Origin: an uncultured Ardenticatenaceae bacterium
GTDB taxonomy: Bacteria; Chloroflexota; Anaerolineae; Promineifilales; Promineifilaceae
NCBI GenBank assembly: GCA_964467705.1
Contig: CAYXUZ010000011.1
Span: forward strand, 572-64,571
DNA length: 64,000 nucleotides
Direction of reading: 5' to 3'
Part shown: one piece after another, positions 15,288 through 25,077 of the stretch
How positions within the stretch are numbered: the stretch's first letter is position 1
Layout: the number at the start of each line of letters is the position of its first letter
Program-made: the position numbers and the translations under genes
Notes under the pieces: generated by a model
Database searches by the model: none
Told to the model about the DNA's origin: nothing
What the model saw: only the letters and a program-made list of their open reading frames with translations

Positions 15288-17918
15288 ATGAAACGGTTAT
15301 CCTGGTTTATTTTTCCTGCAATTTTTAGTTCCCTCATCATTTTTATCCTGGTCACGGCCGTGACTTTTGCCGACACGCGCACCGTCAACGGCGGTTTGCC
15401 CCCCCTCATCTTTGTCGCCCGCGCTCACCTGGCCACCGAAGACACCATCTTCCAGAATGAAGTTGGCCCAGCCGGGCAATTTGGCACCGGCCTGCCCAAA
15501 TATGCGCCCGGCAGCCGCCTGGTGCAGCGGGACACCGACGGCACATTGCACGTTTACAACCTGCCCGGTCTGGCAGATGTACAGTCCCCGGATGTCAACT
15601 TCGCCGCTACCAAAATTGTTTTTGCCGGGGCCAGAACCATTGATCCTACCAGCCCGGATTACGGCTGGCGCATTTACGAAGTAAACGTGGGTGACTTCAA
15701 CGGCGCGAGTCTGGTCCAACTCACCCATTCTGACCGCAGCATCACTATTCCCAACGCCCACTTGTGGGGTAATGCCCAAACCTACGGCGATTACCATGAC
15801 CTGTTTCCGGCTTATCTGGCCGACGGCCGTATCGCCTTCAACTCCTCTCGCTATCCCACCCGCGCCCATTACGACGGCCGTGAATCCTTCAACCTCTACG
15901 TAATGAACGGCGATGGCTCCAATCTCCACCGCATCACCACCGAACGCGCCGGCGTTTTGCATCCCACACCGCTGCCGGACGGCCGTATCCTGCTCTCCCG
16001 CTGGTGGAACCAGTTCAACCAGCCCTCCGAAACCGGCATCTACAACCGCATAGACAACGCCGACCACAACGTCACCTTGCCCGATGGCACCGTCATCCTG
16101 GCAAACCCCGACGCCACCTTCAACCCGCCGCTGGCCATCCTGCCCGGCGGTTTTGAGGTGCGGTCAGCCCCCAACACCTGGCACCTGATGACCGTCAACC
16201 CTGATGGCACAGAGTTCCAACGTTTCGCCTGGACACCCTGCTGCTCCTGGAATCTGACCAACGATTCTGGGAGTGGTGATACCTATGCCGCCGCCCAACC
16301 GGCCGTTGTTTTGCACAACGGCCAGCTTTTTGTGGCCTATACCATGCAGCCTGACCAGACAATGGTTCATTCCACGCTCAAGTCCGGCATCCGCATCGCC
16401 CGTCCCGGCGTGGAAATGCTCTACGCCAACGCCGTAGACGCGCTGGCGGGATTGAGCTACGACAAAGCGTGGAACCAGGGGGATGATTCCGGGCCCTATG
16501 CGCTCCATCCGGCGGGGCTACCCGACGGCCGTGTCCTCTACTCTCAATCCGAAGAAGACAACAACCTGCCCACCAGCGGCACGTATGGCGGCTTCGACTT
16601 GCAAGGCTCCAACCTCCGTTACCGCCTGTGGACAATGAACATTGACGGCGCGGGACAGACGCCCGTTGCCATTGACCTGTCACCGTTCGGTTTGGGTACG
16701 GCCGATCTGATGGACGCCACCCCCATCGTCGCCCGCGTGGGCTGGGCATCCCTGCCCGACGCCTTCACCCAGATTGCCAGCGATGACCCGGTGCAGGGCA
16801 ACGTGCCCAACACCCTGCCCGCCTACTGGTTCAGCCAAAACGGGATAGGAGATATTGAATTAGCCACCATTCATAACCCCAACATCTACGCCAACCCTTC
16901 CCTTTTCACCCCCTACGTCAATAATTCACCGCCGCCCGGCAGCGTCGCCTCGGCCGAATTGTGGATTGACGCCAACCAGTTTACCGGGGCCTATTGTTAC
17001 AACGATTGGCCCAGTCCCTGCGCCAACTTCCGCGCCGATGACCAGGTACGCGCCATTCTCTGGGACGAAGTGGAAGTCACGCCGGGTGGGGCTTTTACGA
17101 TGTCTGTACGCGCCGATGTGATGGGCTTTTTTGTGCTGCGTGACGCCGAAGGGCGGCTGGTGCGCGGTTGGGATCGTGGCTACACCACCGTTGCCCAGGG
17201 CAGCGCCTGGGCGCGCCCAGGCGAAACCGTCACCTGCACCGGCTGCCATATGGGACACGTCAGCGGTTCGTTGGATGACGTGCTGGCCGACGCGGAAGCA
17301 GGCTGGCAAAACGTCTCCCCCTATGCCCTGGCCGACGCCAGTTCCCACCGTCCCGGCGACCAGTACAACAGCTTTGGCCCGGAGAAGATCAATGACCGGC
17401 GTGGTTGGATTCCCCGCCCGGCGGGTGGCCCCCCGGCCCCGTTTTTCGACGAAGCGTACCGGGAGCCGTACCAGGATGATGAGTTGGGCTGGCTGACGGA
17501 GGATGGGCACACCGCTGGCGAATGGGTGGAACTGACCTGGCCCATCACCATGCGCGTCAAACAAATCCGGCTGGTTGGCCCACCGCCGGACGGCGGCGAC
17601 TGGAACGGTTTTGGCGAACCGACCCAATACGGGCCGTTTTATGTGGACAATGCCACCCTCAACTTATATCTGGATGATGTACTGGTAGACGGCCGTGCCA
17701 CTGGCCGTATTGAACCACTGGACAATGGTGGCACACTCATCACCTTCCCCACGCCAGTGGAAATCAACCGGCTGCGCCTGACGGTAGATGCCGTCACCGG
17801 ACGCTGGTATTGGGATGAAGTGGCCGCGCTGAATGAAATCGAGGTCATCGGACAGGCGGCCGAAGCCTGGCCGTTGTTAGAGATTTCTTACACCTACCTG
17901 CCCATCATACAACGGTAG
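15288..17918 (+). CDS. Large secreted beta-propeller (PD40/TolB-like) protein with one CxxCH motif and a discoidin-like C-terminal domain
   Basis: Signal or anchor helix at the N-terminus. Repeated DGRIAF / DGRILLSRW / DGRVLYSQ propeller-blade motifs. VTCTGCHMGH (CxxCH). C-terminal GEWVELTW...LNEIEVIG resembles the F5/8 type C domain. Confidence 0.6.
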   Translation: MKRLSWFIFPAIFSSLIIFILVTAVTFADTRTVNGGLPPLIFVARAHLATEDTIFQNEVGPAGQFGTGLPKYAPGSRLVQRDTDGTLHVYNLPGLADVQSPDVNFAATKIVFAGARTIDPTSPDYGWRIYEVNVGDFNGASLVQLTHSDRSITIPNAHLWGNAQTYGDYHDLFPAYLADGRIAFNSSRYPTRAHYDGRESFNLYVMNGDGSNLHRITTERAGVLHPTPLPDGRILLSRWWNQFNQPSETGIYNRIDNADHNVTLPDGTVILANPDATFNPPLAILPGGFEVRSAPNTWHLMTVNPDGTEFQRFAWTPCCSWNLTNDSGSGDTYAAAQPAVVLHNGQLFVAYTMQPDQTMVHSTLKSGIRIARPGVEMLYANAVDALAGLSYDKAWNQGDDSGPYALHPAGLPDGRVLYSQSEEDNNLPTSGTYGGFDLQGSNLRYRLWTMNIDGAGQTPVAIDLSPFGLGTADLMDATPIVARVGWASLPDAFTQIASDDPVQGNVPNTLPAYWFSQNGIGDIELATIHNPNIYANPSLFTPYVNNSPPPGSVASAELWIDANQFTGAYCYNDWPSPCANFRADDQVRAILWDEVEVTPGGAFTMSVRADVMGFFVLRDAEGRLVRGWDRGYTTVAQGSAWARPGETVTCTGCHMGHVSGSLDDVLADAEAGWQNVSPYALADASSHRPGDQYNSFGPEKINDRRGWIPRPAGGPPAPFFDEAYREPYQDDELGWLTEDGHTAGEWVELTWPITMRVKQIRLVGPPPDGGDWNGFGEPTQYGPFYVDNATLNLYLDDVLVDGRATGRIEPLDNGGTLITFPTPVEINRLRLTVDAVTGRWYWDEVAALNEIEVIGQAAEAWPLLEISYTYLPIIQR

Positions 17919-17951
17919 GCTGTTTTCTACCCAAATCGGGTGAAGTGGTTT

Positions 17952-17994
17952 ATGCTACGGATACGGCCGTGACGGACGGCCGTATCCGTAGCAT
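17952..17994 (+). promoter_or_regulatory. Perfect 19-bp-stem hairpin carrying two ACGGCCGT copies and occluding the start codon of the next gene
   Basis: ATGCTACGGATACGGCCGT (17952-17970), loop GACGG, ACGGCCGTATCCGTAGCAT (17976-17994). The ATG of the downstream CDS is at 17993-17995. Confidence 0.7.
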
Positions 17995-19021
17995 GAACGA
18001 GCAACAAGAAGCCCTAACCCCATCGGCCAACTCCCTCTATGAGCTACAAAGCCTGTTAGCGACCCACTACAATTTACAAGAACTCCGCACGCTGGCTTTG
18101 CGGTTCAATCTCGACCTGGAAGATGTGGGGGGCGAAACCAGAGCCGACAAGGCACGTGAACTGACGCTGCTATTTGCCCGGCAAAACAGGTTGACAGAGT
18201 TGTTGACTGCTTTGCAGGAAGAACGTCCGCATGTCAACTGGCCCCACCCCACCCAAGTGGTTGTACCTGTTGTTGAAAAGTGGATATTCTCTCATTGGCT
18301 ACGCGAAAATATATTGGTGATTGGCGGACTGACCGTTGTGCTGCTGTTGAGCATGACGGCCGTGTGGTGGCTGAACGGCCGTGACTCAGACCCAGCCTGG
18401 CATACCGTATCTGGCGGTACCGCCATTTTGGGCACAGCTTCTGAGTTTTGCACACTCCCCGTCCAGCCCTTTCAAATTCAACGTGCCGAGGTGCGCAATC
18501 AGGATTATCTCAACTGTGTTCAGGAAGAGAACTGCGCCCCACCACCGCTCTGGCAAGTTGGCGAAAACGGCTGGACGTATCCGGCAGGCGAGGCTGACCA
18601 CCCCGTCTGGGGGATTAGTTGGAACGATGCCGCTGCTTATTGTGAATCAATTGGCGCACGGTTACCTGACGAGGCGGAGTGGGTGTTTGCCGCCCGTGGT
18701 AATCGCACCGCCAATTACCCCTGGGGGGATGCGTTTGATGGGGCGCTGGGCAATCTGGCGGAATCTGGCAACGGCCGTGATCTGGCTGTTTCCGTGAGTG
18801 CTAACCGCTGCCAGAATCAGCCGGTGTGTGACCTGGTAGGCAATGTGCGTGAATGGGTGCAGGACACGGCCGTGAACGCCTGTTACACCGGCGATGGCAG
18901 CGGCCAGCACATCAGCAAAGGTGGCTCATTTGCCGACAGCGCCGCCACTATCACCCTCTGGACACGGATGCAAAGTGACGAACAACCCTACGTTGGTGTA
19001 CGCTGCGTCCGCGACCAATAA
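17993..19021 (+). CDS. Transmembrane protein: N-terminal effector-associated (death-like) helical domain, TM helix, extracytoplasmic FGE-sulfatase (SUMF1/EgtB-like) domain
   Basis: The N-terminus LYELQSLLATHYNLQELRTLALRFNLDLEDVGG...KARELTLLFARQNRLTELLTAL fits EAD-type adaptor domains. TM helix ILVIGGLTVVLLLSMTAVWWL. FGE motifs HPVWGISWNDAAAYC, RLPDEAEW, GNVREWVQD, GVRCVRD. Confidence 0.75.
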   Translation: MNEQQEALTPSANSLYELQSLLATHYNLQELRTLALRFNLDLEDVGGETRADKARELTLLFARQNRLTELLTALQEERPHVNWPHPTQVVVPVVEKWIFSHWLRENILVIGGLTVVLLLSMTAVWWLNGRDSDPAWHTVSGGTAILGTASEFCTLPVQPFQIQRAEVRNQDYLNCVQEENCAPPPLWQVGENGWTYPAGEADHPVWGISWNDAAAYCESIGARLPDEAEWVFAARGNRTANYPWGDAFDGALGNLAESGNGRDLAVSVSANRCQNQPVCDLVGNVREWVQDTAVNACYTGDGSGQHISKGGSFADSAATITLWTRMQSDEQPYVGVRCVRDQ

Positions 19022-19026
19022 TCCCC

Positions 19027-19944
19027 TTAAAAATTGGCCTGGACCAACTGAACAAAGCCCTGTACGTTAGCCAACTGGGCAGATGATACGCTCAGAAAAC
19101 GAGTCAGGGGATAGTGCGTGTCATACCACGCCTGTGAAAGCGGGCCATTGCCGCTGTTCCAGGATTGCGGATCAATACACACAACTAACGGCCGTTTGTG
19201 GGCCACAGTTTGCCCTAACAATTGGCTGCCCAAACCCGCATCATCGGCGCTGCCGCCAACAGTCCAACGGGTACTGGCCGCCACATCAGCCGCTTGCCGC
19301 CATTGAAAGGGCGTTGCATTTTTTGGCAGCAAAATGTAGATACGGTCATAATCTTCACGGGCACACAAACCGGCCACACAAACCGAGCCGACGCCATTGC
19401 TGACCACTGTGGTTGAACCCGGCTCAAACGCTGTACTGCGGACAAAGATAGTGACTTCTTCGCTCTGGGCTACGGCCGTGACGGAAGCCCGCACCGGCAC
19501 ATTATACAGCACATCGGTTAACGCCCACTGCACCGACTGGCTTTGCCCATCCGTACCGCCAAACGGGTCAATGCCCAGCCCCACCACCAGACTACGTGGC
19601 CGTTCTTGTTCACCGCCGTCCGGGATGACCAGGAAGTCCATGGCCACGTTCACCAACATTCCAGGCGCTTCCACACGAACCGATTGCCAGACGCCGGCGT
19701 CATAACGGCCGTGACTAAAAAATCCCTGACGCAACACACCATCTACTTCCACGGGCACGAACTCAACTTCGCCAAAATCATTGTCCTCGGCTACCCAACC
19801 TGCCCAACCGGGGGCGACTGGTTCGTCACCGTCCATCACCATTTCCAGATTTTCGGCTGCCAATAGATAGGGAATGCGCTGCACAGGGTCCGGGCCAGGG
19901 CCTTCCTGCTCAGGGTCTATGTATTGTTTAACATCATCGTTCAT
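19027..19944 (-). CDS. Hypothetical protein with a conserved C-terminal domain of unknown function
   Basis: 305-aa ORF. The C-terminal pattern REDYDRIYILLP...TVGGSADDAGLG...IDPQSW...WYDTHYP recurs in uncharacterised proteins (from memory). Confidence 0.5.
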   Translation of the reverse strand: MNDDVKQYIDPEQEGPGPDPVQRIPYLLAAENLEMVMDGDEPVAPGWAGWVAEDNDFGEVEFVPVEVDGVLRQGFFSHGRYDAGVWQSVRVEAPGMLVNVAMDFLVIPDGGEQERPRSLVVGLGIDPFGGTDGQSQSVQWALTDVLYNVPVRASVTAVAQSEEVTIFVRSTAFEPGSTTVVSNGVGSVCVAGLCAREDYDRIYILLPKNATPFQWRQAADVAASTRWTVGGSADDAGLGSQLLGQTVAHKRPLVVCIDPQSWNSGNGPLSQAWYDTHYPLTRFLSVSSAQLANVQGFVQLVQANF

Positions 19945-22646: not shown

Positions 22647-22803
22647 TTTACCAAAAACCCTCACCCTAGCCCTGCTTTGAGGGGGGCAAATGGGGTGGAA
22701 TAGTGGCCGAAAAGAGTGTTGAGCGGCAGGTATTTCCGTGTACAATGGGGACAGTCGGGGGAATACAGTATCAACCACACAGGCACGTAAGCAGGAGGTT
22801 CAT

Positions 22804-25077
22804 ATGAATAAAGCGACTTTTGTTTCATTCTCTACCAATGTCAATCTGGATGCGCTGCCAGCCGGATCGGCGTTTAAGGCGATTTGGACGGTGCGTAACT
22901 CTGGAACAACCATCTGGGGAGAGGGTTACACCATCACCCATATCAACGCTAACAAAGGCAGCCAATTGCTGACCGTCAAGGCCACTTATACGCTGGCCGA
23001 AGTCGCTTCCAAAACCAGCGTGAACCCCGGCGAAAATGTAGAGATTACCCTGGAGATGACCGCCCCGGCGAAAGCCAATCATCGCTTTTTCACCGACTGG
23101 CAGTTGAAAGACCCACAGGGCAAGTTGTTTGGTGACATCATCTGGCTGCGCCTGGTAACAACGACACCGCCGCCTAAGGTCGAAGAAAAACCAGCGCCGG
23201 GCGGGCAGAAGATAAACAACAGCAAATATATTGACGACCACAACATTCCTGATGGCACGCCAATTCAAGAGGGCAAGAGTTTTACCAAGCAGTGGGTGGT
23301 GAAAAATAACGGCGATCTGCCCTGGACGACGGCTTACCGGCTGGTGTGGGTGGGTGGTGAATCGCGCATGGCCGGTTCGATGAGCCATACTGTGCCGGAA
23401 GCGCAGCCGGGTGAGGAAGTGGTGCTTTCTGTACCCATGATTGCCCCACCAGCGCGGGCGGAGGCGTATACCAGTTCATGGCGCATCCATGATGAGCAGA
23501 ACCGGGCCTTTGGTGATTCGTTTTGGGTGAAGATTCAGTCTACGGCGAATGTGGAGGGGTTTGGTATACGGCCGTACTGCCAAAACGATCCACAATGGAA
23601 AACCCTCAAACTAGGGCACGGTCAGAAAACATTTGGCGAATTTGGCTGCCTGCTGAGTTGCATGGCCATGATGCTCACCGGTTTTGGCGAAAATTACACC
23701 CCGCTCTCGTTGAACAATGCCCTACTCAACCGCCCCGCCGGGCAGGGGTTCGACGCTTCCAACGTGTTTTTCATCTCCCCGGCCGCACTCATTGACCACG
23801 TAAAGTTCTATGATAATTGGACGCCGTTGCCGAACACAGGCGCAACCTTTGCCAAACTTGACCCCAACCTGCTTGGCCGCATTGACCAGGAAATTGCCGC
23901 CGGGCAGGCAGTAATTTTGCAGGTGGATCAAGACCCCACCGACCCGTACACCTATGGCACAGAGCAGCATTGGGTGTTTGTGCTGGCGAAACAGGGGAAT
24001 GATTATCTGGTACTCGACCCGACCGACGGCCGTCCCGTCTCCTTGCTCACGCGGTATGGCTATGCCGGGCGTTCACTGGCCGAGGCGGTCAAGTCGGCAC
24101 TCATTTATCGTTCGGATCGGGTGCGGATTCAGCGCGGGGCGCAGCCGCCGGCCGTGGAACCGGTGAAAGAGAGTACGGCCGTGAGTGCCATTGGCCCCAC
24201 CGATGGCGAATTGAAATACACCGGGCCGGCCTGGGAGTTTGGCAAGATGCTCAAAGGGGTGCATGACCGCGCCAACCGCCACCCGGTGCAGGCTGATTGG
24301 GACCTGGCACGAGGCAAGTTCGAGTCGGTGAAGGTGATGAGCGGCGTTTCGGTGGAGGAGATGCAAAATTATCAGGCCAAGTTTTACATGTGCCGGTTGT
24401 TTGAGAGCTGGAACGGCCGTCATGTGCCGGTGCAAGATTTTGTGAATACCGTCGCCAACGACATTGAACGGCTGGTGAATGCGGGCGTCACCTATTTTGA
24501 ATTTCACAACGAGCCAAACCTGACGCATGAGGGGCTGCGCTACAAAGGGGTGGCTGGCTCCTGGAGCAACGGCGCGGAGTTTGCCCAATACTTCATGGAA
24601 GGGCGCAAGCTACTGCGGCAGCGCTTCCCTGGCATTAAAGTGGGCTTTCCCGGCCTGTCGCCGGGGGCGGATGCGGAATATCAGTTTGGGCATGATCGTG
24701 GCTTTCGGCTGAACGATGTCACCTTTTTGCAGCAGGCGGAAGCGGCCGTACGCGCCGCCGATTTTCTGTGTGTCCATGCCTACTACATCTCCATGCAAGA
24801 GGTGGAGACGGAAGCGATTGCTCTGGTGAAAAAGTACCGGCGCATGTTCCCGGACAAGTTGATGTTTGTGACCGAGTTCAGCAACCCTGACCCACAAATG
24901 AAGACGCCGATCATTGACAAAGGCAAACAGGCCAAACGGTTCTATGAGTTATGCAGCCAGATTCCCGGCATGGGCGCGGCTTATTATTTCATCATTTCCG
25001 GTTCGGGCTGGGATCATCAGGCATTGCGGCGGGACGCGGACGGCCGTTCGCTGGGCATCATTGAGCAAATGTTGTAG
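22804..25077 (+). CDS. Multidomain protein: two NBR1-like Ig domains, a peptidase C39-like domain, and a clan GH-A TIM-barrel glycosidase-like domain
   Basis: GGAGG RBS. Two repeats of the W.V.N.G...W pattern (FKAIWTVRNSGTTIW; FTKQWVVKNNGDLPW). PYCQNDPQWKTLKLG...FGCLLSCMAMML resembles C39-like domains. FEFHNEPN and MFVTEFS are the acid/base and nucleophile Glu motifs. Confidence 0.6.
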   Translation: MNKATFVSFSTNVNLDALPAGSAFKAIWTVRNSGTTIWGEGYTITHINANKGSQLLTVKATYTLAEVASKTSVNPGENVEITLEMTAPAKANHRFFTDWQLKDPQGKLFGDIIWLRLVTTTPPPKVEEKPAPGGQKINNSKYIDDHNIPDGTPIQEGKSFTKQWVVKNNGDLPWTTAYRLVWVGGESRMAGSMSHTVPEAQPGEEVVLSVPMIAPPARAEAYTSSWRIHDEQNRAFGDSFWVKIQSTANVEGFGIRPYCQNDPQWKTLKLGHGQKTFGEFGCLLSCMAMMLTGFGENYTPLSLNNALLNRPAGQGFDASNVFFISPAALIDHVKFYDNWTPLPNTGATFAKLDPNLLGRIDQEIAAGQAVILQVDQDPTDPYTYGTEQHWVFVLAKQGNDYLVLDPTDGRPVSLLTRYGYAGRSLAEAVKSALIYRSDRVRIQRGAQPPAVEPVKESTAVSAIGPTDGELKYTGPAWEFGKMLKGVHDRANRHPVQADWDLARGKFESVKVMSGVSVEEMQNYQAKFYMCRLFESWNGRHVPVQDFVNTVANDIERLVNAGVTYFEFHNEPNLTHEGLRYKGVAGSWSNGAEFAQYFMEGRKLLRQRFPGIKVGFPGLSPGADAEYQFGHDRGFRLNDVTFLQQAEAAVRAADFLCVHAYYISMQEVETEAIALVKKYRRMFPDKLMFVTEFSNPDPQMKTPIIDKGKQAKRFYELCSQIPGMGAAYYFIISGSGWDHQALRRDADGRSLGIIEQML

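Follow-up and report, generated by a model that had tools for sequence, protein, structure and literature searches.

A predicted EAD7-TM-FGS membrane protein of an uncultured Chloroflexota bacterium and its conserved convergent partner gene

Within a 64,000-nucleotide stretch of DNA (hereafter, the window) from an uncultured Ardenticatenaceae bacterium of the phylum Chloroflexota (assembly GCA_964467705.1, contig CAYXUZ010000011.1, positions 572 to 64,571), we analyzed a gene for a 342-aa protein, P0001, in which an effector-associated domain (EAD) of the EAD7 family is joined by one transmembrane (TM) helix to a domain of the FGE-sulfatase/C-type-lectin fold (FGS). On balance, we favor the view that P0001 is a single-pass sensor that faces outward and brings in EAD7-tagged effectors in trans. 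A preliminary description, made from the sequence alone, had outlined this architecture; new here are the convergent partner gene, which is conserved, and the finding that relatives of P0001 exchange their N-terminal modules.

The functional vocabulary for these domains comes from the work of Kaur et al. In their 2021 study (PMC8195603; eLife 10:e70394), FGS is proposed to be an invader sensor and EADs to be homotypic adaptors, and under their EAD principle, EADs take the same architectural slots as effectors. Their 2020 study had grouped FGS with effector domains and described EAD7 as primarily recruiting effectors. A 2026 preprint describes FGE-sulfatase-like sensors in defense-associated STANDs. 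In the literature that we searched, EADs and FGS sensors appear only as computational predictions, and no FGS ligand is reported in a defense context.

Domain architecture and predicted topology of P0001

The assignment of the N terminus to the EADs was borne out: the Pfam profile EAD7 (PF19960) matched the whole protein with 52.4 bits (cutoff, 32; E, 4.5e-14) and residues 1-99 alone with 55.7 bits, and the EAD1 profile gave a weak match of 15 bits. The adaptor domain occupies residues 20-79 (18050..18229, + strand). In an AlphaFold2 model of P0001 built from 40 homologs (mean pLDDT, 87), four helices (12-77) are followed by a disordered linker (78-96), one long helix (97-129), and the FGS fold (136-342). 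The first four helices, at residues 12-25, 28-37, 50-63, and 67-77, form a predicted bundle with pLDDT values of 87-96 in the full-length model, so that the N terminus, as modeled, is the small, nonenzymatic, all-alpha domain expected of an EAD.

The preliminary description had further called this EAD death-like. While the EAD7 match upholds the first part of that label, the second part is weakly supported and, judged from the model, no more than suggestive. The top Foldseek matches of the EAD7 model were the caspase-9/Apaf-1 CARD, the ankyrin DD, the NOD1 CARD, and Fas-FADD, but their E values of 0.59-9 were not significant; TM-scores against CARD and Death domains were 0.35-0.48, and the Death fold has six helices where the model has four. 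For EAD7 as a family, Kaur et al. reported HHpred p-values of 2.3e-4 for bDLD1, 9.4e-4 for Pyrin, and 1.1e-3 for DED.

A single TM helix had been placed after the N-terminal domain, and indeed residues 107-125 are the sole hydrophobic stretch in P0001 (Kyte-Doolittle, 2.35 over 19 residues); they form the core of a juxtamembrane and TM helix that spans residues 97-129 in the model (18281..18379, + strand). The remainder, residues 136-342 (18398..19018, + strand), is the complete FGS domain that the preliminary description had recognized. The FGE-sulfatase profile PF03781 matched residues 156-340 with 109.7 bits (cutoff, 23.3), and a Foldseek search of the PDB with P0001 returned 80 matches at E <= 1e-3, led by SUMF2/pFGE (1y4j; E, 4e-15), an inactive FGE paralog, and then by CalU17, ToxD, bacterial and human FGEs, and EgtB. 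The best PDB match by sequence was 7spq, which bears the molecule name "Serine/threonine kinase ToxD" and is titled by Foldseek as a toxoflavin biosynthesis protein.

The domain is predicted to be noncatalytic. Residues 312-337 of P0001 (FADSAATITLWTRMQSDEQPYVGVR), which lie between G311 and C338, contain no cysteine, nor does any occur between its GGS and C-terminal GxRC motifs, and the same stretch is free of cysteines across the family alignment. We take it that the catalytic, copper-binding pair of human FGE, C336 and C341, lies between its GGS and C-terminal GFRC motifs. The titles of PDB entries 2aft and 2afy, which name C336S and C341S mutants, are consistent with a catalytic role for both residues. 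Since this pair is missing, we read the FGS of P0001 as a binding domain that most likely engages a ligand rather than catalyzing a reaction.

The preliminary description had suggested that this topology would couple a binding domain outside the cell to an adaptor inside. An N-in/C-out orientation, with EAD7 in the cytoplasm and FGS outside, is the predicted and consistent reading, because TIR, CHAT, and EAD7, which alternate at the N terminus in this family, are cytoplasmic-type modules. The charges of the relatives point in the same direction: in the 20 residues that precede the TM helix, K/R number 4-7 and acidic residues are absent (the TIR relative, with four acidic residues, is the exception), and the 20 residues after it have 0-3 K/R. 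Cysteines are likewise unevenly distributed, with none in the N-terminal part of P0001 and eight in its FGS; the ranges across the family are 0-3 and 6-8, respectively.

A constant TM-FGS module and its convergent partner

A search of 5.8 billion proteins found the combination of EAD7 and FGS in just two further proteins, P0002 (89% identical) and P0003 (46%). The next-best relatives carry other N termini: trypsin in P0004 and P0005 and TIR in P0006. These are 47-53% identical to P0001 in local BLASTP alignments, which cover about two-thirds of the query, and 36-45% identical overall in MAFFT alignments; more family members have CHAT or trypsin N termini. In the alignment, the juxtamembrane helix, the TM helix, and FGS are homologous throughout the family, and the N-terminal modules are unrelated. 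By sequence comparison, TM-FGS is thus a constant module whose cytoplasmic end is exchanged among EAD7, trypsin, CHAT, and TIR. When the N-terminal region was used to look for EAD7-TM-FGS proteins, the near-identical P0002 was the single return. In a class-wide genome search, every match outside the source genome started at residue 109 or beyond; this is not evidence that EAD7 is absent from those proteins, because a short, divergent EAD7 would not extend a local alignment.

The second constant element is a gene on the opposite strand (19027..19944, - strand), which encodes a 305-aa protein of an uncharacterized family and ends 5 bp from the P0001 gene. A homolog of this partner lies convergent to the X-TM-FGS gene, where X is any of the N-terminal modules, in all 13 loci compared, the window included; the two genes are separated by 0-56 bp or overlap, and the flanks are otherwise unrelated. 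The partner homologs are 39-50% identical, rising to 79-90% in the two closest lineages. EAD7 forms of the cassette are found in the window, L021, L038, and L045; trypsin forms in L035, L036/L037, L040, L041, L042, and L048, with Trypco1 upstream in three of them; and L043 (CHAT), L039 (TIR), and L044 (short N terminus) hold the others. At L045 (992-2048; Anaerolineae metagenome-assembled genome [MAG] JAAUPW010000156.1), the EAD7-TM-FGS gene is read in two frames that break at the start of FGS, and the partner, 79% identical to that of the window, has a C-terminal extension.

The partner had no Pfam match at E <= 10, no PADLOC match, and no PHROG match, and its PDB matches were spurious hits to globins only. 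Its family is small and comes chiefly from Chloroflexota-type MAGs, with 1 of 401 sampled genomes of the class carrying it; distant relatives (27-31% identity) have no FGS neighbor. When 1.8 billion representatives were searched with a profile, each half of the protein fell into a larger superfamily. The N-terminal half is beta-rich and has an NLLxNGxFE-type start that is also present in secreted proteins with LysM (33% identity over 144 residues); the C-terminal half, of about 85 residues, has an invariant GGSADDAG motif and recurs with M23, C39-like, GH, PKD, and Ig domains. Two possible origins were discarded. Homology to a nearby C39/GH protein (22801-25074) was rejected with an hhalign probability of 0.2%. 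A phage-lysin-like origin, hinted at by distant M23/LysM relatives that have no signal peptides, is unsupported, because members of the partner family were found neither in phage genomes nor in IMG/VR contigs. The partner may serve as a ligand, co-receptor, inhibitor, or substrate. The literature searched describes neither the partner family nor an X-TM-FGS gene with such a partner.

Both genes of the cassette are under purifying selection, which is strongest on EAD7. Relative to L021, a Chloroflexota MAG with a 91%-identical ortholog of P0001, dN/dS is 0.14 for the P0001 gene (0.03 for EAD7 and 0.10 for FGS) and 0.13 for the partner. Diversification by a diversity-generating retroelement (DGR) was considered and rejected: blastn found no template-repeat-like copy of the 3' end of the P0001 gene in the genome, a search for reverse transcriptases gave no RVT_1 match in this 96%-complete genome, and the region equivalent to the variable repeat is conserved. 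Given the conserved C terminus and the missing reverse transcriptase and template repeat, P0001 is not an anti-invader receptor of the diversifying kind.

The EAD7 network and the role of P0001

The preliminary description had advised a genome-wide search for the same EAD on NTPases and effectors and would have dropped the assignment if neither an EAD or death-like match nor paralogous N-terminal domains could be found; besides the EAD7 match, the search turned up 23 paralogs. The source genome (6.49 Mb, 96% complete, 280 contigs) holds 24 open reading frames (ORFs) with EAD7 above the cutoff, namely, P0001 and 23 others, all of which are on other contigs. Among the NTPases are KAP, three NACHT (two with multi-TM C termini), nSTAND1 (in two frames), NB-ARC-like/TPR, and AAA-type proteins; effector-type ORFs comprise two TIR, SIR2, CHAT, Ham1/ITPase, PT-HINT, and a receiver domain (REC); and nine ORFs, several of them membrane anchored, have no other recognizable domain. 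As judged from predicted domains, EAD7 in this genome thus behaves as an EAD is expected to, occurring in several copies, some on NTPases and others on effectors. In a sample of 151 genomes of the class, 26 contained EAD7; the source genome had the highest copy number of that sample (25 matches), and one genome of the same family had 23. The sister genome that carries L021 has 28 matches. An attempt to name the cognate partner of P0001 by similarity failed: no paralog exceeds 40% identity and none stands out, and therefore no cognate EAD7 protein can be named.

Several observations touch this network. Two more EAD7 proteins of the source genome (G000), encoded at C53:1997-3118 and C60:2141-3106, are membrane anchored, so that membrane tethering recurs in the network; one of them consists of EAD7, a TM helix, and a C-terminal domain of about 110 aa of unassigned type, and the other has TM helices at its N terminus and then EAD-like repeats. 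At C73:27742-28982, near a contig end, EAD7-nSTAND1 is read in two overlapping frames that break in the middle of EAD7, which could reflect a frameshift, a pseudogene, or an assembly error. A segment of the form G-D-x-x-Y-G-D-K...I-T-A-S-G-x-G-I-A-I-G is common to an EAD7 protein and a cytoplasmic FGS protein on contig C17 (listed at C17:4256-5290 and C17:11403-12188, and also at C5:77639-78418) and, from its sequence, might represent another adaptor or filament-forming module that such proteins have in common.

In the mechanism that we propose, the outward FGS would sense an invariant ligand on the envelope side, for which the partner protein, a cell wall component, and an invader structure are candidates. 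Either clustering driven by the ligand or release from it would be relayed via the single TM helix, allowing the four-helix EAD7 domains to meet in the cytoplasm. Homotypic EAD7-EAD7 contacts would then recruit TIR, SIR2, CHAT, or Ham1 effectors, or NACHT, KAP, or nSTAND1 NTPases, encoded elsewhere in the genome, and as an outcome, the affected cell of the filament could be depleted of NAD+, undergo proteolysis, stop growing, or die. In relatives with TIR, CHAT, or trypsin, the fused effector would be activated by proximity; the EAD7 version would plug the same sensor into a genome-wide pool of effectors via an adaptor instead of a fused effector. We infer that such a mechanism extends the EAD principle of Kaur et al. 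to a membrane-spanning sensor that has no NTPase. A broader proposal is offered tentatively: TM-FGS and its partner might constitute an undescribed two-gene cassette for envelope surveillance in Chloroflexota, with a cytoplasmic end into which either a death effector (trypsin, CHAT, or TIR) or an adaptor can be plugged. The EAD7 form might then be a true bacterial counterpart of death receptors, in which homotypic adaptor assembly, with no NTPase, would pass an extracellular cue to about 23 EAD7-tagged NADases, proteases, and NLR-like proteins.

The interest of P0001 lies in its economy. Hardly any object that combines the two parts could be smaller: a sensor and an adaptor are linked by one TM helix, and an NTPase is absent. 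Its relatives with TIR, CHAT, or trypsin on the same sensor are natural controls; together they make two questions directly testable, namely, whether EADs act as homotypic recruiters like Death domains and whether bacterial immune or suicide pathways can be triggered from outside the cytoplasmic membrane. The strictly co-inherited partner is a new lead to what FGS recognizes or what restrains it.

A number of points weigh against the sensor model. The main difficulty is that the partner has neither a signal peptide nor a TM helix by which it would reach an extracytoplasmic FGS. From its sequence, P0001 could sit at either the sensor or the effector end of signaling, and the positive-inside signal is weak in P0001 itself (two K/R before the TM helix versus one after). 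As had been noted for the window, no STAND NTPase and no second EAD7 were found, and this extends to the whole 65.8-kb contig (C11); an adjacent or operonic cognate EAD copy, which is typical though not obligatory under the EAD principle, is thus lacking for P0001, and the EAD7 of the closest paralog is just 40% identical. In DGR systems, the C-terminal region of FGS is hypervariable, but here it is better conserved than any other part of the family. A PADLOC search of the window cassette gave no match, there are no defense genes among the immediate neighbors in the window, and the literature searched contains no experimental test of homotypic EAD binding.

P0001 could also be placed at the other end of the pathway, where an activated EAD7-NTPase would recruit it and the outward FGS would act on the envelope; it might, for instance, bind or cross-link glycans of the wall or sheath, or alter permeability together with the partner. 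The 2020 classification by Kaur et al., with FGS as an effector domain and EAD7 as mainly effector recruiting, fits this arrangement, as do the superfamilies of cell wall enzymes (LysM, M23, C39-like) to which the partner halves belong and an FGS that is conserved rather than diversifying. However, relatives fuse the same TM helix and FGS to trypsin, CHAT, and TIR with no NTPase; enzymes fused in this way need an input that regulates them, for which FGS is the sole candidate. Given also that FGS lacks the catalytic cysteines and that both the 2021 study and the 2026 preprint recast it as a sensor, we regard an effector-end role as rather unlikely. More doubtful by far is that P0001 is a membrane-anchored enzyme of the FGE family (formylglycine generating, sulfoxide synthase-like, or another oxidase) whose N terminus has no adaptor role. 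It is suggested by the PF03781 match and by weak NCBIfam matches to SenA, EgtB, and OvoA, but these scores are far below the cutoffs (55/420, 45/360, and 17/400 bits, respectively; GldK is also far subthreshold), no cysteines are found in the stretch where the FGE pair lies, and the DinB-like iron-binding domain of EgtB and OvoA is missing, its place at the N terminus being taken by EAD7 and then the TM helix. Inactive pFGE is the best structural match, and the N terminus matches EAD7 at the curated threshold and is very strongly constrained. A catalytic FGE, EgtB, or OvoA identity was rejected on the basis of cysteines, NCBIfam scores, and fold match.

The modules swapped onto TM-FGS (TIR, CHAT, and trypsin) and the EAD7 partners in the genome (TIR, SIR2, CHAT, NACHT, and KAP) are hallmark conflict or suicide domains, and they make it unlikely that P0001 is instead a housekeeping receptor for envelope or cell-cell signaling in a filamentous bacterium, with no part in immunity. 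In such a receptor, FGS would keep watch over the wall or sheath of the cell itself, like the FGS of kinase-TM-FGS receptors, at least four of which are encoded in the genome, and EAD7 would be a general docking module. The stable context of the locus, syntenic with L021 and devoid of defense neighbors, would suit that role, and so would purifying selection throughout, with an invariant FGS, and the tie of the partner superfamily to cell wall enzymes. Nevertheless, the cassette is rare and patchy, as the single carrier of the partner family in the class sample illustrates, and elsewhere it lies beside a restriction-modification (R-M) system and NACHT genes, a pattern that suits accessory defense genes. 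Two of these contexts are, by their gene content, defense-island-like and of the conflict type: at L036 (6497-9665 and 14231-14494), a cassette relative is next to Trypco1 and trypsin-NACHT-HEAT and a lone 87-aa EAD7 gene, and at L041 (5914-9982), another is next to a type I R-M system and a CHAT gene.

Comparison with described architectures

The supplement of Kaur et al. (2021) includes EAD7+nSTAND1+TM+FGS, EAD7+TIR+FGS, and bDLD3+FGS; EAD7+TM+FGS, EAD7+FGS, Trypsin+TM+FGS, TIR+TM+FGS, and Caspase+TM+FGS are not in the 2020 and 2021 supplementary tables. The first of these, from a Chloroflexi protein (KAA3662250.1), resembles P0001 in that EAD7 stands at the N terminus, FGS stands at the C terminus with a TM helix ahead of it, and the genome holds many EAD7 paralogs. 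In contrast, P0001 has no NTPase and hence no nucleotide-dependent switch or oligomerization; its FGS belongs to a different subfamily, the one with the convergent partner, and there is no DGR. Because only a 30-residue linker and the TM helix lie between EAD7 and FGS, with no STAND, KAP, or GTPase domain, P0001 does not belong to the strict STAND NTPase-FGS class. A split version of the nSTAND1 architecture occurs in the same genome as P0001, where a gene for an EAD7 coiled-coil protein overlaps by 4 nt a gene for a 1,020-aa protein with nSTAND1, coiled coil, TM, and FGS (G000:C130:8954-13605).

The bDLD3+FGS protein of Symploca sp. (NET60852.1; Fig. 2I in Kaur et al. 2021) is another small alpha-helical adaptor fused to FGS with no NTPase, and its system has a second adaptor copy on an effector (PNPase+bDLD3). 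However, no TM helix is in its listed domain string, the paper treats its FGS as an intracellular sensor, and its adaptor, bDLD3, has the cognate gene adjacent, whereas P0001 uses EAD7 and its cognates are dispersed. The trypsin-, CHAT-, and TIR-TM-FGS proteins (P0004, P0005, P0006, L040, L041, and L043) share with P0001 a homologous juxtamembrane-TM-FGS segment and the same convergent partner but carry an enzymatic effector in cis, while P0001 carries the adaptor alone. In PADLOC, trypsin- and TIR-TM-FGS cassettes matched just through their trypsin or TIR parts, and as far as we could find, the trypsin, CHAT, and TIR forms with their partner are undescribed.

Ser/Thr kinase-TM-FGE-sulfatase proteins (on contigs C49, C73, C117, and C17) likewise combine a cytoplasmic signaling domain, a single TM helix, and an FGE-sulfatase ectodomain; they differ in a phosphorylation output, the lack of a partner gene, and an FGS that is about 30% identical. 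With Fas and TNFR1, P0001 would share an architectural logic only, that is, a binding domain outside, one TM helix, and a helical adaptor inside that recruits caspase- or TIR-type effectors. The ectodomain folds are unrelated and the EAD7 model has four helices versus six, so the resemblance to metazoan death receptors is an analogy, not a demonstrated homology.

Gene model, leader hairpin, and flanking sequence

The P0001 ORF ends at 19021 on the + strand and has two candidate starts, GTG at 17945 and ATG at 17993. In L021, the ATG is kept and the position of the GTG reads CTG; therefore, 17993..19021 (342 aa), the interval given in the preliminary description, is the best gene model. The leader contains a perfect hairpin of 23 bp with two copies of the octamer ACGGCCGT (17948..17998, + strand), and its 3' arm holds the start ATG, which is thereby buried. 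A 92-nt stretch containing it folded with -52.9 kcal/mol (z = -9.8). Compared with L021, the arms are identical and the loop has changed. A generic genome repeat was rejected as an explanation, since long paired-octamer hairpins number just 8 in the whole genome, and by that count, this one has the longest exact stem; an Rfam search of the leader matched no family. With no T-run 3' of the stem, the hairpin looks, from its sequence, more like a translational or RNA stability element than a terminator.

Upstream of the leader, the window encodes an 876-aa protein (15288-17918) with an N-terminal signal-anchor-like segment and a weak match to the hydrazine synthase alpha middle domain; it is syntenic in L021 only and lies outside the cassette. 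The octamer itself is a palindrome and by far the commonest 8-mer of the genome, with 14,148 copies in 6.49 Mb, or 1 per ~460 bp, ~140 times the chance expectation; it represents, in Chloroflexota, a highly iterated palindrome of the HIP1-like kind. Many ORFs read it as Thr-Ala-Val, and its sites in the window include those at about 17963, 17975, 18356, and 18866.

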